Positions 8,515 through 63,590 of a stretch of 64,000 nt of DNA are shown here, one piece after another (positions within the stretch are counted from its first letter, which is position 1; every line of letters starts with the position of its first letter). The position numbers and the translations under genes were made by a program. The stretch is from Raja brachyura (lineage: Eukaryota), in the NCBI GenBank assembly GCA_963514005.1, contig OY740790.1:4340001-4404000 (forward strand), given 5' to 3'. The notes under the pieces are model-generated. The model saw only the letters and a program-made list of their open reading frames with translations. It was not told the DNA's origin and searched no databases.

Positions 8515-9666
8515 CTAGTTCCTCCTTGTGTTCTTTGCCCTTGCCTTGGTCTTCTCCTGCCCCTTGGAGTTGCTTGGTTTCTCCGTGAGCGGAACCTCGT
8601 TTATCTTCACCATCTCGGTTATTTGTTCGTCGCGGGGTGACGGGGAATAAGGAGTTTTCCACTCGTCCGTGCCCGGCATGTTGAGATGTCTCACCACCAT
8701 CTTTGGCCTGGTTTTCTGTGGTTGGGGGGGGTACATTGACCCCCAGGGCAGTGCGGGCAGGTTGAAGAGATTGGCGTAGGGTTGATATGGAGAGGCGAAC
8801 GCCATCCCGTTGATGGCGGGCAGTGATGCTTGCGCAAACTTGTACAACTTCGCACTTTCCGGCCTAAAACGTTGCCTCTGTTGCTCGAAGTGAGGGGCGA
8901 CGTCAATGTAGGAAGGGTTGACGCCGGTGATGGTGGCGATCTGGTGGGCGTTGGCCAGGTCGGCAGAAGCTCTCTCGGGCAAGACGGGGTTATAAAGTGC
9001 GGTCCAGGGCACGCCGTTCACAAACCTGTGAAGGATGGCCAGCCATGTCCCGTTACTGATGGGATTAATGGTCACCCTGGGCCACAGCGCCGCCAACGTG
9101 CGGAGAGCCTCAGTGTTCCAGCCCGATTCGTAATGGCGGTCGCCGATATGGTAGAGCGCGGAAAAGTAGACGTCTAACCTCGTGCTCGGGTAGTTCAGTA
9201 AGAAATCGTGCATTTTCCCAATGCAGCCATGGGCTCGCTCGTTGCACGGGGTGTAATTGGAATATAGGCTGATGTACGCAATGTCTTCATAGGTGTACAT
9301 GAGTGCGTCCAGATAGCCCTCCATATCGAAGAACATTGCCTCTGGGTGTAGCTGGTACAAAGCACAGTTGGATACTTGCCCCTTCTGCACCAACGTGCCT
9401 GATGATAACTTTAGTTCATAAAAAACTAGATGACTCCCACGCTGTGGCTGAGCGTAGGGAAAGCCGAAGGTTTCATAAAATTCCATGTAGGATACGCGGG
9501 CCTCGTCTCCGGTTTTGATGTGATACGGGCACTTGGCACAACTTTCAGTGAAGTGCAGCCAGTAATATGGCTTCACCAGTGTGCCTTGTGGAGCTGTATA
9601 CTCCTCATATGTCAACGCCATACTGGATGCGTCATCTCCTCGCTTCCATGAGGGTGGAGCATCCAT
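8515..9666 (-). CDS. APOBEC4: APOBEC4, AID/APOBEC-family zinc-dependent deaminase-like protein (whole CDS in one exon; likely start at the second ATG, 9621, giving 368 aa)
   Basis: 383-aa ORF with YEEY..GTLVKPYYWL, CAKCPYHIKTG, HPEAM (HxE), LYSNYTPCNERAHGC (PCx6C, typical of APOBEC4), LAALWPRV and C-terminal VVRHLNMP, all matching vertebrate APOBEC4 as I recall it. ATG 9621 has strong Kozak context (agtATGG) and aligns with the mammalian start. Confidence 0.97.
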   Translation of the reverse strand: MDAPPSWKRGDDASSMALTYEEYTAPQGTLVKPYYWLHFTESCAKCPYHIKTGDEARVSYMEFYETFGFPYAQPQRGSHLVFYELKLSSGTLVQKGQVSNCALYQLHPEAMFFDMEGYLDALMYTYEDIAYISLYSNYTPCNERAHGCIGKMHDFLLNYPSTRLDVYFSALYHIGDRHYESGWNTEALRTLAALWPRVTINPISNGTWLAILHRFVNGVPWTALYNPVLPERASADLANAHQIATITGVNPSYIDVAPHFEQQRQRFRPESAKLYKFAQASLPAINGMAFASPYQPYANLFNLPALPWGSMYPPQPQKTRPKMVVRHLNMPGTDEWKTPYSPSPRDEQITEMVKINEVPLTEKPSNSKGQEKTKARAKNTRRN

Positions 9667-9745
9667 GCAGCATTCTGGAGCTCATAGCCATCACTCAAAC
9701 CTCTGTGCATTTGAACGATTGCATTAAGCCAAATGGAAGGGATAT

Positions 9746-12295: not shown

Positions 12296-13245
12296 GTTGC
12301 AAGAAATTGTAGAGAATTGTGGACCATCGCACAGACCAACCTCCCTTCCATTGACTCCATCTGCACCTCACGCTGCCTCAGCAAGGCCAGCAGCATCATC
12401 AAGGACCAGTCGCACCCCGGCCGCTCCCTCTTCTCCTCTCTCCAACCAGGCGAAAGGTACAGAAGTGTGAAAACGCACACCTCCAGATTCAAGGACTGTT
12501 TCTCCGCCAGTTTATCGGGCAACTAAATCCACCCATCAACAACTAGAGAGTGGTGTTGAACTGCTGTCCACCTCATTGGGGACCCTCGGCCACTGCCCAG
12601 TCCATCACCGGCTCTGACCTCCCCACCATCGACCGGATCTATCGAAGTCCCTGCCTCAAAAAGGCAGCCAGCATCTTCAAGGACCCGCACCATCCTGGCC
12701 ACACACTCATGTCACCACTGCCACCAGGAAGAAGGTACAGGAGCCTGAAAACTGTAACGTCCAGGTTCAGGAACAGCTTCTTCTCTACAGCCATCAGGAT
12801 ATTAAACTCCACAACAAATAAGCTCTGAGCTGCAACAGACTTATTATTATTCCACTATATTTGNNNNNNNNNNNNNNNNNNNNNNNNNNNNNNNNNNNNN
12901 NNNNNNNNNNNNNNNNNNNNNNNNNNNNNNNNNNNNNNNNNNNNNNNNNNNNNNNNNNNNNNNNNNNNNNNNNNNNNNNNNNNNNNNNNNNNNNNNNNNN
13001 NNNNNTATGCTATGTTTGCATATTCTGTTGTGCTGCAGCAAGTACGGATTTCATTGTCCTATCTGGGACACATGACAATGAAACTCTCTTGAATCTTTAC
13101 TGGCTATACCTTGCACTACCTGTTATTCCCTTACCATGTGGACGGCTCGATTGTAATCATGTATTGTCTTTCCACTGACTGGATAGCACGCAACAAAAGC
13201 TTTTCACTGTACCTTGGTACACGTGACAATAAACTAAACTGAACT
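12296..13245 (+). mobile_element. Two tandem Rex1/Babar-type LINE 3' fragments spanning the assembly gap
   Basis: DPHHPGH..PLPPGRRYRSLK..TSRFRNSFF; gacaataaactaaactgaac tail. Confidence 0.78.
12864..13005. other. Assembly gap (142 N)
   Basis: Run of n. Confidence 0.99.
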
Positions 13246-13924: not shown

Positions 13925-15268
13925 GTTGTGTTAAAGAAGGAACTGCAGATGCTGGAGAATTGAGGGTTACACAAAATTTCCCTACCATTCCTTGACCTCA
14001 CCATGTCTATTGCAGGTGACACACTCCTGACCGACATCCACTACAAACCAACTGACTCCCACAGCTACCTGGACTACTCTTCCTCCCACCCTGCTTCCTG
14101 TAAGGACTCCATCCCCTATTCCCAATTCCTCCGTCTATGCCCCATCTGCTCCCAGGATGAGGTGTTCCACACCAGGTCATCACAAATGTCCTCGTTCTTC
14201 AGAGAACAGGGATTCCCCTCCCCCACTATAGATGAGGCTCGCACCAGGGTCTCCTCCATACCCCGCAACACTGCCCTCTCTCCCCATTCCCCCACTCACA
14301 ACAAGGGCCGAGTCCCCCTGGTCCTCACCTTTCACCCCACCAGCCAGCGCATACAACAGATAGTCCGCCAGTTTCGCCACCTCCAACGTGACCCCTCCAC
14401 TCGCCACATCTTCCCATCTCCCCCCCCTGTCTGTCTTCCGCAAAGACCGCTCCCTCCGCAACTCCCTGGTCAATTCTTCCCTTCCCTCCCGCTCCACCCC
14501 TTTCCCGGGCACTTTCCCTTGCAACCGCAAGAGATGCTACACTTGTCCCTTCACCTCCCCCATCCACTCCTTTCAGGGACTCAAGCCGTCATCCCAAGTC
14601 CGACAGAGGTTCACCTGCACCTCCTCCAACCTCATCTACTGCATCCGTTGCTCCAGATGCCAGCTGATCTACATCGGTGAGACCAAGCGGAGGCTAGGCG
14701 ATCGTTTCGCCGAACACCTCCGCTCGGTCCACAATAACCAACCCGACCTCCCGGTGGCTCAGCACTTCAACTCCCCCTCCCATTCCGTATCTGACCAATC
14801 GGTCCTGGGCCTCCTCCACGGCCAGGGTGAGCAACACCGCAAGTTGGAGGAACAGCACCTCATATTCCGCTTGGGGAGTCTGCATCCTCTGGGCTTAAAC
14901 ATTGAATTTTCTCAATTCTGTTAACCCAGACTGCCCCCTCCCCCTCCCCACCTCTCCCTCAGCCCTCGGGCCCTGACATTCCTTCTCCATCTCCCAACCC
15001 CCCCCTCCCCCACCCCCCCACCCCAGTCGCACTAGCTTCTCATTTTCACACCACAAACAGCTTACAATGGCCTGCTTCCTTTATCATCAATACTTTCTTG
15101 CATATCTTTCATTCATTGTTCTTTATCTCTCCACATCACCGTCTATATCTCTCGTTTCCCTGATCCCTGACCAGTCTGAAGAAGGGTCTCGACCGGAAAC
15201 GTCGCCTATCTCCTTCGCTCCTTAGATGCTGCTGCACCCGCTGAGTTTCTCCAGCTTTTTGTGTAACC
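13925..15268 (+). mobile_element. 5'-truncated Penelope-like element (same family) with an inverted pLTR fragment at its 5' end
   Basis: RT C-terminus and GIY-YIG ORFs (14003-14680, 14388-14924); TSD caagaatctgtcact 13910-13924 / 15269-15283; 13925-13976 is the reverse complement of the pLTR terminus and its extension. Confidence 0.9.
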
Positions 15269-16026
15269 CAAGAATCTGTCACTCTCCAGTAAACTAAACT
15301 AAACGATGTTTTACAGATGCAGCTGGCAACGGGCCCTTCGGCCCACAGAGTCCATGCTGTCCATCCATCACCCGTTCTCACCAGTCTTGTTTTTCCACTT
15401 TCTCACCCTCTCGATACACTAGGGGCAATTTAGAGGCCAATTAACCTACAAACCCACATGTCCCTGGAATGTGAGGGAAACCATGGCACCCGGAGAAAAC
15501 CCACACTAACAACAGTTTTACGTGCCTTGAGATCTATTTATAGACAATAGACAACAGGTGCAGGAGTAGGCCATTCAGCCCTTCTATCCCCATTCCTGCC
15601 TTCTCCCCATATCCCCTGACTCCACTATTTTTAAGAGCCCTATCCAGCTCTCTCTTGAAAGCATCCAGAGAACCGGCCTCCGCCGCCCTCTGAGGCAGAG
15701 TTCCACAGACTCACAAATCTCTGTGAGAAAAAGTGTTTCCTCTTCTCCGTTCTAAATGGCTTGCTCCTTATTCTTAAACTGTGGCCCCTGGTTCTGGACT
15801 CGCCCAACATCAGGAACATGTTTCCTGTCCCTAGCATGTCCAAGCCCTTAACAATCTTATATGTTTCAATGAGATCCCCTCTCATCCTTCTGAACTCCAG
15901 AGTGTACAAGCCCAGCTGCTCCATTCTCTCAGCTATTTGAATGCTGCAAATGGTGTGCAAACACTGAAATACCTTAATGAAAGTGAAAGTCCTGAGTGCA
16001 TACTCTAGTACATTGCGAATGCTTAC

Positions 16027-19418: not shown

Positions 19419-19977
19419 AGGGCCTGTCCCACCAGCATGCAACTCTATGCGATGAGTGCGACCTAACGTGGTCGCTTGAGCCGTCCGGCGTCGCGGCGCC
19501 GGTCCCACTTCGATCGCCGGAGCCGTGCGGAATTGTGCGGAGTTCGTCCCGACATCGCGCGGGGCTCCGAAAAACTGACTCTGTTCAAAAATTCCGCGCG
19601 GCAACGGCTTGTCGACTCGCAGTCACCTCGACGCATTACACACCGCCTAGACGTCGTGCCTCCGTGACCCTCTCTGTGTGTGGCTCCGTGGCCCTCTGTG
19701 TGTGTGTGCGCCTTTGTGATCCTCTCTGTGTGCCCCTCTCTGTCCTGGTGAACTTACCTTTAAGACTTCGCTCCAAGTTCGCCTCACTTTGCACCGCGTT
19801 GCGCCACTCACCCGACCTCCGCGCGGCCCTCGCTGCCGGTTTGGTCGCGCTTGCCACATGCTGGCGCATGCTGGTGGGAACGGCCCTGTACAGGGGATCA
19901 CCCGACCTCCGCGCGGCCCCCGCTTCTAGTTTGATCGCGCTCACTGCATGGAGTCGGATGTTGGTAGGACAGGCCCT
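19419..19977. mobile_element. PIF/Harbinger-like MITE (GC-rich subfamily) with duplicated right end
   Basis: AGGGCCTGTCC...GGACAGGCCCT; TAA/TTA flanks; similar to 63103-63590. Confidence 0.82.
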
Positions 19978-20207
19978 TTACTATTTAAATTTGCAAGGCC
20001 TACATGGCTGCCATCTTGATGTGGGCAAATGGGTTTGGTGCAGATGGGCAAAAGGGTCAGCATGAACGTGATGGGCTGAAGGGCCTATTTTTGCGTTCTC
20101 GCTGCTGCATACCAAAGCCATAATTTCCTTCATTTAAATTTTTTTTTAAATCTCCATTGCTGCTTTGGCTTCCTCTTTTCAACTCCCAAGTAGACTTTTC
20201 GTTTCAG

Positions 20208-27594: not shown

Positions 27595-29962
27595 CGTTCT
27601 TCCACGGGAACAAGTCCCCGCCCCCCACTGATGATCCCTTTTCCTGTCTCCCACGAAACCCTCCTCGTGGACCCCCCCCCTCGTGGCCCTCCAGCTTTAG
27701 AACTCTTTATACAGAACTGCCGTCGGGACATCAACCGCCTTGACTTCTCCACTCCCCTGTCTCACTCCAATCTCCCCCCCTCCGAACGTACTGCCATCGA
27801 CTCACTCCGCAACAACCCAGACTGGGTTATCAAACCCGCCGACAAGGGAGGTGCCGTGGTAGTCTGGCGCGTCGATCTCTATATAGCGGAGGCCATGCGC
27901 CAACTCTCGGACACCTCCTACTTACCCTTGGACCATGACCCCACTGACGAGCACCAGGCCACCATCTCGAGCACCATAACCGACTTCATCAACTCCGGCT
28001 CCCTACCCCCCCCGAGCCTCCAACCTCATCGTTTCCCAGCCCCGCACGGCCCGATTTTACCTTCTCCCCAAAATCCACAAACCCGACTGCCCCGGCAGAC
28101 CCATTGTCTCTGCCTGTTCGTGCCCCACCGAACACATTTCCACATACCTTGACTCCATCCTATCCCCCTTTGTTAAATCCCTCCCCACCTATGTTCAAGA
28201 CACCTCAGACACTCTCCGTCGGCTCCGCGCATTCCATTTCCCCAGGCCCCCATCCTCTCATCTTCACCATGGATGTCCAGTCCCGATACACCTGCATCCC
28301 CCACCAGGATGGTCTCAAAGCCCTCCGGTACTTCCTTGACCAGAGGAGCAACCCATACCCGTCCACTGACACCCTCCTTCGCCTAGCGGAGTTGGTCCTT
28401 ACCCTCAACAACTTCTCTTTTGACTCCTCCCATTTCCTCCAAACACAAGGTGTAGCTATGGGCACACGCATGGGCCCCAGCTACGCCTGCCTCTTTGTCG
28501 GGCACGTCGAACAATCCTTGTTCTCGGCGTACCAGGGCCCCACCCCCGACCTTTACCTCCGTTACATTGACGACTGCTTTGGTGTCACCTCCTGCACCCA
28601 CGCAGAACTGACTGACTTAATCCATTTCACCACCAACTTCCATCCGGCACTCAAATACACTTGGACCATTTCCGACATTTCCCTACCATTCCTTGACCTC
28701 ACCATCTCTATTGCAGGTGATACACTCCTGACCGACATCCACTACAAACCCACTGACTCCCACAGCTACCTGGACTACTCTTCCTCCCACCCTGCTTCCT
28801 GTAAGGACTCCATCCCCTATTCCCAATTCCTCCGTCTATGCCGCATCTGCTCCCAGGATGAGGTGTTCCACACCAGGTCATCACAAATGTCCTCATTCTT
28901 CAGAGAACGGGTTTTCCCCTCCCCCACTATAGATGGGGCTCGCACCAGGGTCTCCTCCATACCCCGCAACACTGCCCTCTCTCCCCATTCCCCCACTCAC
29001 AACAAGGGCAGAGTCCCCCTGGTCCTCACCTTTCACCCCACCAGCCGGCACATACAACACATACATTCCTCTGCCAGTTTCGCCACCTCCAACGTGACCC
29101 CTCCACTCGCCACATCTTCCCATCTCCCCCCCTGTCTGCCTTCCGCAAAGACCGCTCCCTCCGCAATTCCCTTGTCAATTCTTCCCTTCCCTCCCGCTCC
29201 ACCCCTTCCCCGGGCACTTTCCCTTGCAACCGCAAGAGATGCTACACTTGTCCCTTCACCTCCCCCCTCCACTCCTTTCAGGGACCCAAGCAGTCATTCC
29301 AAGTCCGACAGAGGTTCACCTGCACCTCCTCCAACCTCATCTACTGCATCCGTTGCTCCAGATGCCAGCTGATCTATATCAGTGAGACCAAGCGGAGGCT
29401 GGGCGATCGTTTCGCCGAACACCTCCGCTCGGTCCGCAATAACCAACCCGACCTCCCGGTGGCTCAGCACTTCAACTCCCCCTCCCATTCCGTATCCGAC
29501 CTCTCGGTCCTGGGCCGCCTCCACGGCCAGAGTGAGCAACACCGCAAGTTGGAGGAACAGCACCTCATATTCCGCTTGGGGAGTCTGCATCCTCTGGGCT
29601 TAAACATTGAATTTTCTCAATTCTGTTAACCCTGGCTGCCTCCTCCCCTTCCCACCTCTCCCTCAGCCCTCGGGCCCTGGCATTCCTTCTCTCTCTATCT
29701 CTCCCCCACCCAAGTCGCACTAGCTTCTCATTTTCACACTACAAACAGCTCACAATGGCCTGTTTCCTTTATCATCGATACTTTTTTGCATATCTTTCAT
29801 TCATTGTTCTTTATCTCTCCACATCACTGTCTATATCTCTCGTTTCCCTGATCCCTGACCAGTCTGAAGAAGGGTCTCGACCCGAAACGTCACCTATCTC
29901 CTTCGCTCCTTAGATGCTGCTGCACCCGCTGAGTTTCCCCAGCTTTTTGTGTAACCCCCCCC
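27595..29962 (+). mobile_element. 5'-truncated Penelope-like retroelement (Neptune-type), RT plus GIY-YIG endonuclease, frameshifted, with 3' hammerhead motif
   Basis: KPADKGGAVV, GVAMGTRMGPSYACLF, YLRYIDD, FLDL, CNRKRCYTC linker, NLIYCIRC..IYI(S)ET..RFAEH; TSD tgagatttaat 27584-27594 / 29963-29973. Confidence 0.93.
29864..29894 (+). ncRNA. Minimal type I hammerhead ribozyme motif in the PLE pLTR (representative of many copies)
   Basis: CUGAAGA-a-GGGU(CUCG)ACCC-GAAA-C-GUC^; palindromic ACGU stem III without a loop; very short stem I. Confidence 0.7.
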
Positions 29963-30990: not shown

Positions 30991-31704
30991 GGTGCAGAAG
31001 TTTGAAAACGCACACCTCCAGATTCAGGGACAGTTTCTTCCCAGCTGTTATCAGGCAACTGAATTATCCTACCACAACCAGAGAGCAGTGCTGAACTACT
31101 GTGGCAAACTGGCTCCATTTCATCTGCCGAGTGAGTGCACAATACCCCTGCTGCCAGGCATGGATGAGAGAAACAGCCCACAGCATCGGGCCATGGCCGG
31201 CAGCTGCTAGAGGTGGAAACTCTAACCTTCGTGGAGTAAATCAATAACCAATGCAAGGAGTTTTCATAAGCCGGAGATAAAGGACAGCGCCACGCAGACT
31301 TACAAGAGGAGATCTAAGGTAGATCTGAATCTGTTAATAGAACAAGATAAAAGGTGGAGTGACTCAGCGGGTCTTATTATTAAACTGTGACCCCTGGTTC
31401 TGGACTCCCCCTACATCGGGAACATAGGGACGTAGGGCTCTTCTGCCACCTCTGAGCTTTTATGGGGGAGAATCCTATCCATCCAGTGACAACCTGTCTC
31501 CAACATTCCCCCACCTCTTCCCACCCCCCAGCCCCTACACAGCCTTCTATCCTCTCTGGACTTTTTTCTATCCACTGTGGGTGCAACAACGGTCTTGGCT
31601 TCTCTACTCCCCTGGCCCACTCAAACCGGAAAGGTCCCGACCTGAAACTACAGCCTTTTCGTTTAGGACCCTTTTTCCAGTCCGACATTAAATGTACCCA
31701 CCCA

Positions 31705-31930
31705 GACATGTCACCTATCCATGTTCTCCACAGATGCTGCCTGACCCGCTGAGTTACTCTAGCACTCTGTGAAACGTCACCTATCCATGTTCTCCAGAGA
31801 TGCTGCCTGACCCGCTGAGTTACTCCAGCACTCTGTGAAACGTCACCTATCCATGTTCTCCACAGATGCTGCCTGACCCGCTGAGTTACTCCAGCACTCT
31901 GTGAAACGTCACCTATCCATGTTCTCCACA
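31705..31930 (+). repeat. 66-bp tandem array derived from PLE pLTR (~3.4 units)
   Basis: Unit tgaaacgtcacctatccatgttctccacagatgctgcctgacccgctgagttactccagcactctg at 31770, 31836, 31902. Confidence 0.92.
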
Positions 31931-32940
31931 TAGGGAAAATATACATAATATAAGTTTAATAATAATATAATATAAATATACATTCAGTTTTGGACTAATC
32001 ATGCTTTTTTGTTGTTGATGGGGTGAGAAAAAGTAAATCTCTGAGGCTGGGCAAATATCCATGGGTCAGGCAAACTAGTTTAAATTGGACAAATTGCATC
32101 TTCACTTCAAATGAAATAAATTGGCTTGTGTAACCGTTGCTTAATCTTCAACTTGAACTCGTTTCCAGCATCTGCAGACTTCTTTGAATTAAAAAAAATA
32201 TTTTAAAATAGGGTTCGACTTTGTCAAAGTTTCACTCGTAAACCCAACATTTTGCATCTTTGAACCATGAATTGGAGACCCAAAAATCTCTGTCGAACTG
32301 GTTATCAAATGTACCAAGTGCTCCCGGAATGACACCAGCACTTGGGAACATTTTCATTGCAATTCTTCACTTTTCCTTCAAATTCGATTTTTTTTTAAAA
32401 ACAAAGGTCCAGCTTGTGAACTTTAAACAGCATTTTTTTTAATTTTTAAAATCCTTCGCAGGTTTCCTTCTTGGTTTGAGGGTTACTCGGATGTCTCAAT
32501 CCGATCTTCTTTGTTGCAACAAAGAGGTGCTTGTGTGAAATCCCAGTGAAGGCTGCTCAAAATATGAAGTAGCTTTCTGGAACTGCGGAGTTACGTCTCT
32601 CCCCCCCCCCCCCCCACCCTCTTTAAAGTGGGAGTCACTCAGTCTGTGTGGAGCACTGTGTCGATTAAAGCAGCTCAGCAGTTTACTTCCGTCAATTGTC
32701 CCCGGGCATCTCCCAGTCACTATCGGAAAAGGGAATTTCATCTGTCATATTGCCTGTCATATTCCGGGACTCAGCCCCGTGGAGCTTTGGTTTACCAGGG
32801 AGAGTTTGCTTTGAACCAGGAGTGTGGGCTATCTGCTGGATCCAGACCCTGTCTGTATCTGCAAAATGACTTGCTCAGAATCAACTCTGCTTGCTTCCGA
32901 CTATGGTCTGTGAGGCAAATGCAAAATATGGTCCAAAAGC

Positions 32941-32961
32941 ATGGCTTATTTTCCTATGTTG
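32941..32961 (+). CDS. Candidate alternative first coding mini-exon (MAYFPML, phase 0), possibly RGL1
   Basis: Strong Kozak agcATGG and donor TTG|GTGAGT at 32962, at the end of a repeat-free region with promoter-like motifs (ACTTCCG ETS, GAGTCA, GGGAATTTC). Confidence 0.35.
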
Positions 32962-33599
32962 GTGAGTACATCTGACTGGAGATGTGTCTTTTAAATACTT
33001 TAACCGGACTACATCTATAATTGTTGAAATGAGCAATGCACTTTGGTTGTTTTTAACACTATGCATAAGCAGGGCCATCGTTTAAAATGGAATTGATTTT
33101 TGTGGTACTTTTTAATTATGGCATGGCTTGTTCTATCTTTTGACATTTTATAAATATTCTGAGGTTTACTCATGGTCAGCTGCCTGTCACTAGGAAAGTT
33201 AGGAGTGCGTTACTGTCATATGTCCCGGATAGGACAATGAAATTCTTACTTGCAGCAGCGCAACAGAATATGTAAGCATAGTACACTGTAAACAATATGA
33301 CAAAAGAGGGAAAAAAAGACCAGTGCGTGTATGTATGTGTGTTGGGACTGAGAGGAGGAAAAACTTCTTCACCCAGAGAGTTGTGAATCTGAGGAATTCT
33401 CTGCCACAGAAGGCAGTGGAGGCCAATTCACTGGATGTTTTCAGAAGAGAATTGGATTTAGCTCTTAGCGCTAACAGAAGCAGGGGATATGGGGAGAAAG
33501 TAGGAACGGGGTATTGATTGGGGATGATCAGCCATTATCATATTGAATGGCCGTGCTGGTTCGAAGCGCCAAATGGCCTACTCCTGCACCTATTTTCTA

Positions 33600-33706
33600 T
33601 GTGTATTTATATATATATATGTGTGTGTGCGTGTGTGTATATGTATATATATATGTGTATGTATATGTAATACATGTGCATATGTGTGTATCACACACAC
33701 ACACAC
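33600..33706. repeat. Compound TA/TG/CA microsatellite
   Basis: Directly visible. Confidence 0.9.
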
Positions 33707-34355
33707 TAAATAATATTGCAAAAAGACAAAACTAATGCCCCCAAGTCTACGTATGTAGTTGTGAGGTTTCCTTATCTGATTTGACTGAAGCTAAATGATG
33801 TTGAAAGTGTTATTTCTGAATCGAGATCTTGGTTCTGACTGCCTGGCCAACCTTTAGCGGTCAGTGCTGAGTTTTGAGGATAAGGGGGAAGTCTTTTAGG
33901 ACCGAGATGAGAAAAACATTTTTCACACAGAGAGTGGTGAATCTCTGGAATTCTCTGCCACAGAGGGTATGGCAAGTTGAGGCCAGTTCATTGGCTATAT
34001 TTAAGAGGGAGTTAGATGTGGCCCTTGTGGCTAAAGGAATCAGGGGGTATGGAGAGAAGGCAGGTACGGGATACTGAGTTGGATGATCAGCCATGTTCAC
34101 ATTGAATGGCGGTGCAGGCCCGAAGGGCTGAATGGCCTACTCCTGCACCTATTTTCTATGTTTCTATGAAACTCTATGATGCAAGTGGTATTTGAAAGCG
34201 TAAATGCAAACTTGAATCATGGAGTGCATATTCTCGTATTGCCGACAAACGAGGAGCTGCAGATGTTGGTGTACAAAGAAAAGACACAAAGTGCTGGAGT
34301 AACTGGTCAAACAACATCTCTGGGGCACATGGGTAGGTGATGTTTTGTGTCTGAT

Positions 34356-34730
34356 CTGAGGAAGGGTCTCAACTCGAAACGTCACCTGCCCATGTTCTCC
34401 ACAGATGCTGCATGACCCGCTGAGTTACTCCAGCTCTCTGTGAAACGTCACCTATCCATGTTCTCCACAGATGCTGCCTGACCCGCTGAGTTACTCCAGC
34501 ACTCTGTGAAACGTCACCTGCCCATGTTCTCCACAGATGCTGCATGACCCGCTGAGTTACTCCAGCACTCTGTGAAACGTCACCTATCCATGTTCTCCAC
34601 AGATGCTGCCTGACCCGCTGAGTTACTCCAGCACTCTGAAACGTCACCTATCCATGTTCTCCACAGATGCTGCCTGACCCGCTGAGTTACTCCAGCACTC
34701 TGTGAAACGTCACCTATCCATGTTCTCCAC
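34356..34730 (+). repeat. 66-bp tandem array (~5.4 units) headed by a full hammerhead core
   Basis: CUGAGGA 34356-34362; units at 34375, 34441, 34507, 34573, 34637, 34703. Confidence 0.92.
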
Positions 34731-36461
34731 ATAGGGAAAATATACATAATATAAAGATCCTGCTATTGTGTTTGGCATGGACATTGTGGGCCGAAGGGCC
34801 TGTTCTTGTCCTGCACTGTTCAGTTTGCTCTATATTATAAATCTATAAACTTCCTTAAGCTACAATCTGATATCTATCGCAATAGCAGGAAATCACAGTC
34901 ACCTTTTGAACCGAAATATTTTAGCCACCTTTGCCCAGTGTGGAAATGTCAAAGAGCACAGGACGTAGCTTTAAGGAGAGAAGGGCATAATTTAAAGATG
35001 TTCAGAGCTAGTTTTTTTAATATACAAGGTTGTGGGTGCCTGGAACACACTGCCAGAGATGGTGGTGAGGGCAGATAAGTGGTGTTTAAGAGGCCTTTAA
35101 ATGGGCAGCATGGTGTCACAGCGGTAGAGTTGCTGCCTTACAGCACAAGAGACCCGGGTTCGAACCGGACTAAGGGTGCTGTTTGTGCAGAGTTTGTACG
35201 TTCTTGCAATGACCTCTGTAATCCATTTCCTCCAGCAACTCTACTGCTGTGCCACTGTGTCACGTCTTGTGTTGAAGTTGATACTACAGCAGCTAAATGG
35301 CCAGAACACCAAATTAATAACACGATCATTAATAATAATAACATTAATAACCTTATGTAAAAACGGTTATGGGCACATCGGGAAAAAACCCCAATAATAC
35401 ACAGTTAATTAGTTTTATTTTCTTTTTGCTTTGAAAACGTTTGGTATGGGTATAGTAATGCGTTTGCACAAGATCAATGGCAAATTGCACTTATTGCCTC
35501 TCATTTAATCCACTATTAGGTGTCTTTGGTTCCAAGACTGTCTTTAAACTTCACATGCCAACATTTCCAGTTCATCTTAACATTACTAGAATGCTGTTCC
35601 TTCTTTCAACTGAGAGTGGAGCTATTTTCAAGGTACACCTAGACTTGCTGGACATTCATTTAGAATCTGGGCTTTCCCACAACAAACCAAAACAACATTT
35701 CAGGTCTCGACCCAAAACGTGACCTCCCTGTTCTCCAGAGGTGCCAACTGACCTGCTGAGTTACTCCAGCACTTTGTGTCTTTTGTTTTGTAAACCAGCA
35801 CTTGCAGTTCCTTGCTTCTAAATTAATCTATACTCCAACGTACATTTTAAAGGTGGAGATTGACAGATTCTTGATTAGTACGGGTGTTATGGGGAGAAGG
35901 GGGGAGAATGGGATTGAGAGGGAGAGATAGATCAGCCATGATTGAACGGTGGAGTAGACATGATGGGCCGAATGGCCTAATTCTGCTTCACCTTCTAAGT
36001 CTCGAACCTAAATGCTGCCTATTTGACTTCAGAGATGTTGCCTGACCTGTTGAATTACTTCAGCGTGCTTTTATTTAAACATGGGTTTGTACTTCCTTCA
36101 GTCTTGAAAGCACAATATTATTAGTCCTCCTCTAGACTGAACCGTTGCTGCCTGCCTTTCCTCTTGGTGCTAAATGTCTATGTAAACAAACCGCAAAAAA
36201 TGCAAACTGTAAATAAGTCAATGTTCTCCAGAGATGCTGCCTGGCCTGTTGAGTTACTCCAGCACTCTGTTGTTGTTTTGCTGCAAAATCATAGGTTAGG
36301 TTGATGTGGAATCTGCCTTCCCAAGTGAGTCAGATTATCAGGATCTCTTATCTCGAGCGCTTCAATACGGACATGTTCTCTCTCACAGTTTGGTGCCAAA
36401 TGACATGTATAAATCATCCAGTTGGCAGTAAATTCTCCTCTGCAGGTTTCTGCTAACATTG

Positions 36462-46889: not shown

Positions 46890-47472
46890 GGAGACAAAAT
46901 GCTAGAGTAACTCAGCGGGTCAGGGAGCATCTGTGGAGAACATGGATAGGTGACGTTTCACAGAGTGCTGGAGTAACTCAGCGGGTCAGGCAGCATCTGT
47001 GGAGAACATGGATAGGTGACGTTTCACAGAGTGCTGGAGTAACTCAGCGGGTCAGGCAGCATCTGTGGAGAACATGGATAGGTGGCGATTCACAGAGTGC
47101 TGGAGTAACTCAGCGGGTCAGGCAGCATCTGTGGAGAACATGGATAGGTGATGTTTCACAGAGTGCTGGAGTAACTCAGCAGGTCAGGCAGCATCTGTGG
47201 AGAACATGGAGAGGTGACGTTTCACAGAGTGCTGGAGCAACTCAGCGGGTCAGGCAGCATCTGTGGAGAACATGGATAGGTGACGTTTCACAGAGTGCTG
47301 GAGTAACTCAGCGGGTCAGGCAGCATCTCTGGAGAACATGGATAGGTGACGTTTCACAGAGTGCTGGAGCAACTCAGCGGGTCAGGCAGCATCTGTGGAG
47401 AACATGGATAGGTGACGTTTCACAGAGTGCTGGAGTAACTCAGCAGGTCAGGCAGCATCTCTAGACAACATA
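46890..47472 (-). repeat. 66-bp tandem array (~8.5 units)
   Basis: gag(t/c)aactcagc recurs every 66 nt from 46905 to 47433 (9 times). Confidence 0.95.
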
Positions 47473-48959
47473 GAGTTCACTCCCTGTGTCCACGTGGGTT
47501 TTCTCCGGGTGCCCCGGTTTCCTCCCACCCTTCCTCCCAAAGACTTGCCGGTTTGTAGCTCAATTGTCTTCAGTAAGTTGTGAAATTGTCCCTGGTCTGT
47601 AGGATAGTGTTTGTGTATGGGGCGATCGCTGGTCGGCAGGGTCTGGGTAGGACGAAGGGCCTGTTTCCGTGCTCTATCTCTAGTTTAAACAGAGGAGGTA
47701 GTTGAGGCAGGTACTATAACAACAGTTAAAAGACACTTGGAGATGGGTTTAGAGGGACATGGGCGAATGCGGGCAGGTGGGACTAGCTGGGTTGGCATGG
47801 GCAAGTTGGGCCGAAGGGCCTGTTTCCCTGCTGTGTGACTCTGACTCTCTCTCACTTTATGAATCCTGGCCTTTGCGTTTGTTGCCCTTTTTGATGGCCG
47901 TAATCTGCCTTTTGCTTTGCATACGTTATTTGCCTCTGAGGCACCGACTTTTTAAAACTTTTTGACAACAATTGCCAATTGTCTTCCTCTTTAGTCCAGG
48001 ACATTTGATACTTTTCAATCCTGGGCAACCCCCAATGCTGATTTACACGTGGGTAGCTTCCAAACTAAGGGCGGCACGGTGGTGCAGCGGTAGAGTTGCT
48101 GCCTCACAGCGCCAGAGACCCGGGTTCCATCCTGACTACGCGTGCTGTCTGTACGGAGTTTGTACGTTTGTGCAGGTTTGTAGGTTAATTGGCTTCTGTA
48201 ACTTGTTCCTAGTCTGTGCGATAGTAGTGTACGGATGCTCGCTGGTTGGCGCAGACTCGGTGGGCTGAAGGTCCCGTTTCCGTGCTGTATCGTTAAACTA
48301 ACCATGCAAAATAACAGTATGAACAATGAAAATCCCTCATAATTTGAACTAATATTTTCTGTGCACTTGACAGCCATCTAACTAACCAAAACCCCAATCC
48401 CTCTTCTTTCCCCCTCTCTTCTCTGGACCCTACCAGAAACTGCATCCATTTCCCTCATTATCTGGCCCCTCTCCTTATTTACCCTCCCCTTCCGTTGCTA
48501 TCCCCCCCCCCCCCCCCTTCCATTACTATCCTCTCCTCCAGCTTCACATTTCGTGCCTCCTCTCTTCTTGTCTCACAGGCTTAAGTTAATTATTTTTATC
48601 TCTTGCATTTTTGTCCACCTATCTGCCAGTTAAACCACCCCCAACCTCACCTGTATCCACCTGTCACTTGCAGGAACAAGTAACTGCAGATGCTGCTTTT
48701 TAACCAAAGATGGCCAAAGATACCAAAGTCCTGGAGTAACTCTGACAGCATCCCCAGAGGAAAAGGATAGGTGACGTTTCAGGTCAGGGCTGAAATGTTC
48801 CCTCGCCTTTTCTCCAGAGATATTGCCAGCTGCTGAGTTACTCCAGCATTTTGTGTCTCTCCACCTATCACTTGCTTGGCTTTGTCCCATCCAGTCTTAT
48901 AAGCCTCCTGTCTCTCCCCCCCCCCCCCCACCACCTCCCCCATCACCATTACAAATGCC

Positions 48960-49280
48960 CTGAAGAAGGGTCCCGACCTGAAACGTCACCTATCCATGTT
49001 CTCCGGAGATGCTGCCTGACCCGCTGAGTTACTCCAGCACTCTGTGAAACGTCACCTATCCATGTTCTCCGGAGATGCTGCCTGACCCGCTGAGTTACTC
49101 CAGCACTCTGTGAAACGTCACCTATCCATGTTCTCCACAGATGCTGCCTGACCCGCTGAGTTACTCCAGCACTCTGTGAAACGTCACCTATCCATGTTCT
49201 CCACAGATGCTGCCTGACCCGCTGAGTTACTCCAGCACTTTGTCGCTTTTTATTTTGGAAATCAGCATCTGCAGTTCCTT
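48960..49280 (+). repeat. 66-bp tandem array (4 units) headed by a full hammerhead core, ending in the normal pLTR tail
   Basis: CUGAAGA 48960-48966; units at 48979, 49045, 49111, 49177. Confidence 0.92.
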
Positions 49281-49628
49281 GGTCTCCTACCATAATGTGT
49301 TCAGATTTTTTTTTGACCACGTTCCAGGGACTGATGCAACAGCAAACTCCATCCCAATGCTTGCAATGGGCTTCGGACTGAAGGAAATCTGGTTAAGAAA
49401 CTGGACTAGAGGCATCAATGCCTGGAAAACTTGGCAGTATCATCATTATATTTATTGCCTGCTAATCACATGACAAAACATTAAATCAAAAACATCTGAT
49501 AGTTTTGTTGGAAGGAACTGCAGATGCTGGTTTAAACCGAAGATAGACACAAAAAGGTGGAGTAACTCAGCGGGTCAGTCAGCGTCTCTGGAGAGAAGGA
49601 ATAGGTGACGTTTCAGGCCGAGACTCTT

Positions 49629-63102: not shown

Positions 63103-63590
63103 AGGGCCTGTCCTACAAGCATGCAACTCCATGCGATGAGCGCGACGTAACGTGGTCGCTTGAGCCGTCCGGCGTCGCGGGGCCGGTCCCACTTCGATCG
63201 CCGGAGCCGTGCGGAATTGTTAGAGTTCGTCCCGACATCGCGCGGGGCTCCGAAAAACTGACTGATCAAAAATTCCGTGCGGCAACGGCTTGTCGGCTCG
63301 CAGTCGCCTCGACGCATTACACACCGCCTCGACATCGTGCCTCCGTGACCCTCTCTGTAGGTGCCTCCGTGACCCTCTATGTGTGTGGCTCCGTGGCCCT
63401 CTGTGTGTGTGTGCCTCTGTGCCCCTCTCTGTGTGCCCCTCTCTGTCCTGGCAAACTTACCTTGAAGACTTTGCTCCAAGTTCGCCTCACTTTGCGCCGC
63501 GTTGCGCCACTCACCCGACCTCCGCGCGGCCCCTGCTGCCGGTTTGATCGCGCTCACCGCATGGAGTCGGATGCTGGTAGGTCAGGCCCT
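63103..63590. mobile_element. PIF/Harbinger-like MITE (GC-rich subfamily)
   Basis: agggcctgtcc...ggtcaggccct; TTA TSD; similar to 19419-19977. Confidence 0.85.

Follow-up and report, generated by a model that had tools for sequence, protein, structure and literature searches.

Four 66-bp tandem arrays in Raja brachyura, derived from a Penelope-like pseudo-LTR, appear to be copies of one young unit grafted in or beside older resident tails

Penelope-like elements (PLEs) have pseudo-LTRs (pLTRs) that carry minimal hammerheads, occur as inverted truncated copies and have an optional tail of 30-40 bp, as described in three reports (PMC4209133, PMC8557442, PMC11167929). According to Cervera and de la Pena 2014 (PMC4209133), helix I of these minimal type I hammerheads is typically 4-5 bp long (2 bp in D. 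virilis), and dimer and trimer constructs showed low cleavage in vitro. Tandem repeats derived from pLTRs are already known: the animal non-LTR retrozymes (Cervera and de la Pena 2020, PMC7229834; Li et al. 2026, bioRxiv 10.64898/2026.07.22.740005) are arrays of few units that carry one hammerhead per unit, with a range of 51-972 bp in Li et al. 2026, where true retrozyme dimers showed cleavage in one of nine tests. Site-specific non-LTR retrotransposons (Tx1 clade, R1 clade, Utopia/Keno) use a fixed site in a multicopy repeat, transposons being among their targets, and PMC4640811 reports for them a precise joint on one side, frequent loss of the 5′-side target half and of TSDs, and tandem stacking; the target specificity of Tx1, described in PMC3747384, offers a precedent. 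UnaL2 multiplies its 3′ terminal repeats by template slippage, with a slippage unit of 5 nt (PMC1636434). Minisatellites derived from transposons are also already known, with tandem units cut from high-copy elements by microhomology-type joints (PMC9659126).

The present analysis of 64,000 nucleotides from Raja brachyura (GCA_963514005.1, contig OY740790.1, positions 4,340,001 to 4,404,000 of the forward strand, hereafter the window) revealed four tandem arrays that can be compared with each of these systems. Their parent element shares with the PLE hammerheads of PMC4209133 (i) the CUGAnGA motif, the extra base between 9 and 10.1, the G10.1-C11.1 pair and the loopless ACGU, and (ii) a GIY-YIG ORF end upstream, many dispersed truncated copies and inverted pairs. 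However, the array units keep only the GAAAC-GUC half and the cores that head the arrays have a helix I of 0-1 bp. Like the retrozymes, the arrays are pLTR-derived tandem repeats with few units, and their 66 bp lie inside the published range, but none of their units carries a hammerhead, they lack TSDs and they are grafted into older tails. Since retrozymes are defined, in Li et al. 2026, by a hammerhead in consecutive units, these arrays are not retrozymes: no two successive units carry a complete hammerhead, and no TSD was found, those of retrozymes exceeding 4 bp where they occur. The arrays may work like the target-specific non-LTR elements of PMC4640811, with an apparently fixed site in a multicopy repeat, a joint that is precise at one edge, a target half lacking at the other edge and tandem stacking; unlike in these elements, no endonuclease or RT gene was found among the A1-flank frames and window ORFs searched, and what builds up is 66 bases of the target in permuted order rather than the element itself. 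UnaL2 provides a comparable route from two terminal-repeat copies to many, but its 5-nt unit is its own whereas the 66-nt unit comes from another element. As in the transposon-derived minisatellites, a microhomology-type joint delimits a tandem unit taken from a high-copy element; however, in-place expansion would give units resembling the host copy, whereas one master unit and one break site are found here.

According to TRF, the four period-66 arrays of the window (A1 to A4) contain 3.3, 5.4, 8.7 (minus strand) and 4.0 copies. A1 (31705-31930, plus strand; TRF span 31710-31930) consists of three full units followed by positions 1-28 of a fourth, and A2 (34376-34731, plus strand) of five units, one with a 2-nt deletion, followed by positions 1-28. 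A3 (46894-47475, minus strand; TRF span 46900-47471) comprises an old half (positions 13-28), eight young cassettes and another old half (positions 29-66), and A4 (48980-49243, plus strand; TRF span 48979-49243) four units, with the resident-type G26/G27 in the first and the resident-type T63 in the last. The unit corresponds to the 3′ part of a PLE pLTR, and its first bases are the GAAAC of the minimal hammerhead. The unit-to-unit joint is identical in all four arrays (...CACTCTGT directly followed by GAAACG), and a tolerant scan of the window detected 19 joints (11 on the plus strand and eight on the minus strand), every one within the four arrays. The initial annotation had recognized four arrays of one 66-nt unit, on which TRF and the register printout agree, and had proposed a constant register as a check; 19 of the 19 joints in the window share one register. 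The 19 full-length units differ from their own consensus at 28 of 1254 bases, and three of these 28 private changes lie at CpG. In A2 and A3, variants recur in patterns of two units, which points to local turnover. All four arrays fall inside 17.5 kb (P 0.065). Elsewhere, the window carries further short tandem repeats (19808-19981, 19656-19706 and 63337-63435), namely a two-copy 90-bp repeat and a 24-bp unit that occurs twice, far apart.

As far as its sequence indicates, the kind of parent from which the array unit derives is a 5′-truncated PLE (28677-29957, plus strand) comprising an ORF end with a GIY-YIG motif, a pLTR, a minimal hammerhead at 29864 and a tail. A second 5′-truncated copy (13976-15269, plus strand) is 94% identical to it, and in both 1.3-kb copies the ORF end is followed by a pyrimidine-rich stretch, the core and the unit. 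The frame 14364-14921 of the second copy matches PF01541 (GIY-YIG) with an E-value of 2.8e-4, below the curated cutoff, and a third copy matches it above the cutoff (1835-2308, E 8.8e-5); the Pfam search gave no RT domain match in the PLE copies of the window. Outside the arrays, 48 unit anchors, some of them weak, indicate a very abundant dispersed repeat. Forty dispersed matches reach at least 46 of 66 bases (best 60/66), one of the 40 being the leading half-unit of A3; the distal tail is present in 10 of 39 dispersed copies, the proximal motif in 25 of 39, and inverted pairs are common. Dispersed copies cover only 4.8% of the window, and each array adjoins one (A1 by eye). Twenty-eight copies are core-like: CUGAnGA is found in 19, GAAA in 19, UH in 23, G10.1-C11.1 in 18, the palindromic ACGU in 13 and all three core parts in nine. 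The assignment to a PLE pLTR follows from the core, the inverted truncated copies and the optional tail, which fit the published PLE pLTRs. The parent element belongs with the PLE minimal hammerheads by its location after the GIY-YIG ORF and its core motifs, so that the motif identified by the initial annotation as a Penelope-type minimal hammerhead is confirmed as such (CUGAnGA, GAAA, UH, G10.1-C11.1 and ACGU, behind a GIY-YIG ORF end). Rfam returned no match at gathering scores for the window and, at relaxed E-values, only weak hairpin or microsatellite matches and no ribozyme. The young PLE copies (1616-2224, 13976-15269 and 28677-29957) are 92-98% alike and their tail subfamily differs from that of the arrays; 1389-1615 is an inverted pair of young-PLE ends. 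The window also carries, at 8518-9681 on the minus strand, a 387-codon open frame with matches to AID/APOBEC-like deaminases (NAD1 E 2e-22, APOBEC_N E 2.2e-19).

The relationship among the array units is star-like: they show 2.70 differences per 66 nt within arrays (43 pairs) and 2.81 between arrays (128 pairs), and are thus not closer within than between arrays, as in-place expansion would have them. The view that one master propagated, rather than independent slippage at each place, was already put forward from the shared boundary and is borne out by these values. C27 is present in 15 of 19 array units compared to three of 40 dispersed copies, and C63 in 17 of 19 compared to six of 40. The residents are older and differ from each other. 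The cores heading A2 and A4 differ at five of 20 bases, whereas units differ from one another by 4.3% (P about 0.001 if the cores followed the unit rate), and the leading half-unit of A3 (positions 13-28) carries five differences in 16 bases and its trailing half (positions 29-66) four in 38. A2 occupies the right arm of a palindrome that is older and whose inverted left arm, an old resident pLTR (about 34252-34346, minus strand), matches the unit at 51 of 66 bases; C14, found in three of 39 dispersed copies, is common to this arm and to the first unit of A2. A4 is followed by a resident distal PLE tail extension (49244-49281, plus strand). Left of A1 lie decayed pLTR remnants (31629-31704, plus strand), namely a core fragment (31629-31648) and older unit positions 2-17 (31690-31704, by eye), the latter joined to A1 out of register (by eye). 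Since units are equally alike within and between arrays while the cores differ at five of 20 bases, the comparison of these sequences shows a single young master unit grafted in or beside older, mutually different resident tails. Some 100 bp upstream of the core of A4, there is also an older palindromic pLTR pair (48675-48860).

The points at which old sequence gives way to young sequence are similar in the different arrays. In A3, old sequence extends to position 27 and resumes at position 35 of the last unit (switch at 28-35), the switch lies after position 27 in A4 and at about 14-27 in A2, and A1 and A2 both stop at unit position 28, so that the graft intervals contain or adjoin position 28. 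For A3 and A4, the probability that both intervals include one given site is 0.066; since position 27 counts among the diagnostic sites, it delimits the graft intervals by construction. Because the graft points converge between positions 28 and 29, the inserted cassette would be a permuted one, made of positions 29-66 followed by positions 1-28. From 5′ to 3′, the cassettes of the successive arrays carry (i) 2, 0 and 0, (ii) 2, 2, 1, 1 and 0, (iii) 1, 2, 0, 2, 2, 2, 0 and 0, and (iv) 2, 0 and 0 differences, some of those in 5′ cassettes being resident-type states and not later mutations. Over the 19 cassettes, those on the 3′ side are nearer to the consensus (rho -0.64, within-array shuffle P 0.005, post hoc), and the last cassette is perfect in four of four arrays (P 0.03, post hoc); these graft and polarity statistics come from four arrays and are all post hoc. 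No dispersed copy interrupted at position 28 was found within the window.

Downstream of A1 and A2, the unit is joined at position 28 to the same 23-base sequence of non-PLE origin (31931-31953 and 34732-34754, both probably to be read on the minus strand). Both of the two foreign joints are thus at position 28, and both may be one event copied. These 23 bases are a candidate 3′ end of an antisense site-specific element. At A1, they run on into a repeat without any detected coding match (31954-32452, probably minus strand), and an ATTAAA lies about 25 nt before the A1 joint on the minus strand. The depth over 32013-32452 is 27-329 times the single-copy depth in three DNA runs and drops to single copy at about 32452; away from the joint, it falls from 121 to 48 times single copy in run X1 and does not fall in runs X2 and X4. 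The A1 flank differs from the contigs of its family by about 8% (15/188 and 8/92), against 1.5% for the cassettes, and is therefore not a young copy of the commonest form. Searches in this flank detected no protein by Pfam (six of six frames) nor by protein search and phmmer (two of three minus frames; possibly non-coding 3′ sequence), and a coding test comparing stops with variable places made no frame prominent. No Tx1-type domain was found among the 72 window ORFs scanned, no right target half beyond the foreign bases that follow A1 and A2, and within the window no terminal inverted repeat for these bases. Translated arrays gave matches to DUF1932 and MerR that were below the cutoff and were taken as repeat noise.

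Stem I is a requirement of type I hammerheads. The two cores reported as complete by the initial annotation do have the CUGAnGA, stem II and GAAAC parts, but not the rest. The resident half heading A2 (34356-34375, plus strand) has CUGAGGA, the extra A and stem II, with a stem I of only 1 bp, and the resident core heading A4 (48960-48979, plus strand) has CUGAAGA, the extra A and a stem II with G-U in place of the G10.1-C11.1 pair, with a stem I of 0 bp. With stem I defined as the bases before CUGA paired with those after GUC, consecutive pairs with every downstream unit number one for the core at 34356 (six of six units) and none for that at 48960 (four of four), below the helix I of PLE minimal hammerheads (4-5 bp, or 2 bp in D. 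virilis). Among the 28 core-like copies, stem I reaches 4 bp in none and 2 bp in 14; the young parent copies have 2 bp. CUGAnGA is absent from both strands of the unit, and no array has more than one core. Other hammerhead permutations within the unit were considered and rejected, as they give no core. The predicted share of the ensemble in which stem II and an inter-unit ACGU/ACGU helix coexist is 6e-10 to 2e-8 for 48940-49280, and for the same enforced fold 4e-8 to 9e-7 for A2 alone and at most 7e-12 with the left arm of A2, these shares being secondary-structure estimates without a positive control. The proposal that the ACGU of the next unit makes the core active in cis is not supported, given units without core, a stem I of 0-1 bp and a predicted active fraction of at most 1e-6. 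Nor does the unit begin at the cleavage site: the joint sits 8 nt 5′ of it, and therefore cleavage does not define the joint. With these displaced boundaries, coreless units and no TSD at any of the 10 boundary pairs tested (the longest shared words, 4-6 nt, are not placed at both boundaries), the suggested retrozyme- or satellite-like amplification route finds no support either.

The hammerhead has no predicted role in array formation. Because the anole PLE hammerhead cleaves only with its protein (PMC11167929) and the young parents here have only a 2-bp stem I, array RNA may nevertheless be cleaved in trans. In the pLTR before the core (29840-29864 and other cores), a pyrimidine tract is followed by CTGAC and then by CAG/T-CUGA; of the 28 copies, 16 keep the AG before the core, whereas the heads of both arrays have lost it. 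In D. virilis Penelope, a 3′ splice site is described at stem I (PMC4209133); this AG may be one too, so that a spliced exon could supply the missing helix.

The region 31450-35000 is partly present in 20 of the 23 read runs listed and present by half or more in none; four of the 23 were compared over 31837-34475. In unique stretch, run X1 and the window are equal at 756 of 760 bases without gaps, and X1 is therefore from the same or a very close species. Monomer ends predominate among the loose ends listed, and at the unit those with the best support correspond to tails and cores of monomers. No contig bridging the joint or the foreign sequence is found among the pieces listed, which carries no weight either way. 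In three runs, the post-joint depth has a rough ceiling of 0.14-0.17 of the unit depth, the value for the window being 0.40; depth is no copy number, but there is a hint that the window is richer in arrays than the genome at large. The joint pattern has no match in viral and metagenome contigs, nor the monomer pattern in metagenome, viral and prokaryote genome contigs, collections in which animal DNA is not expected. Over 34168-34387 (left flank, arm and core of A2), an X1 contig at single-copy depth shows 21 differences in 220 bases and X4 has two versions (15/184 and 4/105); a duplicated locus or paralogue is suggested. At 31837, which is also the edge of the compared stretch, and at 34441, each of three DNA runs has 8-12 contigs in which two unit starts on opposite strands meet with no core between. 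The sole run of Ns in the window (142 N) is located at 12864-13005.

We tentatively favour, while granting it somewhat less than an even chance, the addition of cassettes at a fixed site between positions 28 and 29 by a candidate antisense, site-specific non-LTR retroelement. In its favour are the star-like units, the divergent cores, C27 and C63, the graft points around position 28, the polarity, the adjoining dispersed copies and the multi-copy sequence with its ATTAAA at A1. The RNA of this element would end in read-through, target-derived sequence. The element would nick the plus strand near this site, and the left half of the resident would then prime in register on the read-through tail of the RNA. 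Copying of positions 29-66 and 1-28 would add one cassette, and more would follow through repeat visits to the regenerated site or through template slippage. Synthesis would mostly halt in the tail (A3 and A4) and sometimes reach the element's own 3′ end (A1 and A2). The joint of CTCTGT with GAAAC would have arisen once, in the master, through a TG microhomology. A fuller version is more doubtful, namely that a retroelement revisits one Penelope-tail spot in mostly abortive insertions, each adding a permuted 66-base piece of the target with the newest on the 3′ side, so that the remnants build polar, one-template minisatellites by a telomerase-like or stacking process.

The clustering of the arrays within 17.5 kb suits a local process and therefore counts against a site-specific writer, as do the negative domain searches, the divergent A1 flank, the missing right target half at A1 and A2, the lack of dispersed copies in the window interrupted at position 28 and the 5-nt size of the known slippage unit. 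This clustering (P 0.065) would be better explained by spread at the DNA level, i.e. a microhomology duplication in one array followed by break repair (gene conversion, strand invasion) that copied it into homologous resident tails nearby, A2 having copied the end of A1 plus 23 bases of A1's native flank. Such copying would account for the missing right half at A2, for the older A1 flank and for the fact that the 23 bases are common to two arrays that are nearest neighbours, equally oriented and separated by 2.8 kb; the two-unit variant patterns in A2 and A3 and the post-joint depth ceiling (0.14-0.17 against 0.40 of unit depth in the window, rough) fit as well. However, it predicts neither the convergence on position 28 nor the polarity, and the A1 variants T56 and G27 are absent from A2; we regard it as rather improbable. 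An assembly or gap-filling artefact appears less probable still. Here, the assembly path would have looped through a real satellite of 66 bp, inserted this loop at monomer loci and exited on two occasions along one and the same branch. It would explain that A3 and A4 are in-register insertions in otherwise complete monomers and that two arrays exit via the same 23 bases, and could be reconciled with the 142-N run and with the lack of a joint-bridging contig among the pieces listed. Against it, both switches in A3 lie inside a 7-nt stretch shared with the resident, a length that would not allow a switch by overlap or k-mer unless C35 changed later; moreover, the units carry private changes (three of 28 at CpG), the polarity tracks the orientation of the element, minus strand included, an independent contig agrees at 756 of 760 bases and a 640-bp GT tract was kept in the window.

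The two remaining explanations involve the machinery of the PLE itself. PLE RTs are relatives of telomerase with internal starts at two tail sites (PMC11167929), and a Penelope RT could reiterate on sense RNA in a telomerase-like manner, starting near the proximal tail end, stalling at the foot of stem II and priming again. The unit indeed begins at the foot of stem II and finishes a few bases before the apparent stop of many dispersed copies, but the arrays are unlike their own residents and the 3′ graft points of A1, A2 and A3 are at 28-35 and not at tail ends, which makes this a very unlikely origin. The least probable is the route in which the heading core pairs with the next ACGU and cleaves in cis, the 66-nt monomers circularize and the circles are reverse-transcribed as a retrozyme. 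The core motifs and the ACGU palindrome are present, and a circle would yield a star-like set of units. Besides the short stem I, the coreless units, the tiny predicted active fraction and the lack of TSDs, this route is at odds with the age and mutual divergence of the heading cores and with break points that lie some 20 nt 3′ of the cleavage position.

The literature searched, whose coverage was incomplete, showed no description of pLTR cassettes that lack a core, share a single graft site in older copies and have a polarity. The arrays call for caution, since pLTR-derived tandem repeats headed by a hammerhead need not be retrozymes. If gene conversion or an artefact is the true explanation, they are an ordinary transposon-derived minisatellite. 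If the site-specific addition of cassettes is true, a writer of target-derived cassettes would be an unusual way of building minisatellites: identical minisatellites could arise at unlinked loci through a parasite of a parasite writing these cassettes, and not through slippage or conversion at each locus. Furthermore, the polarity would date successive events and offer an assay for target-primed reiterative synthesis with a 66-nt unit.
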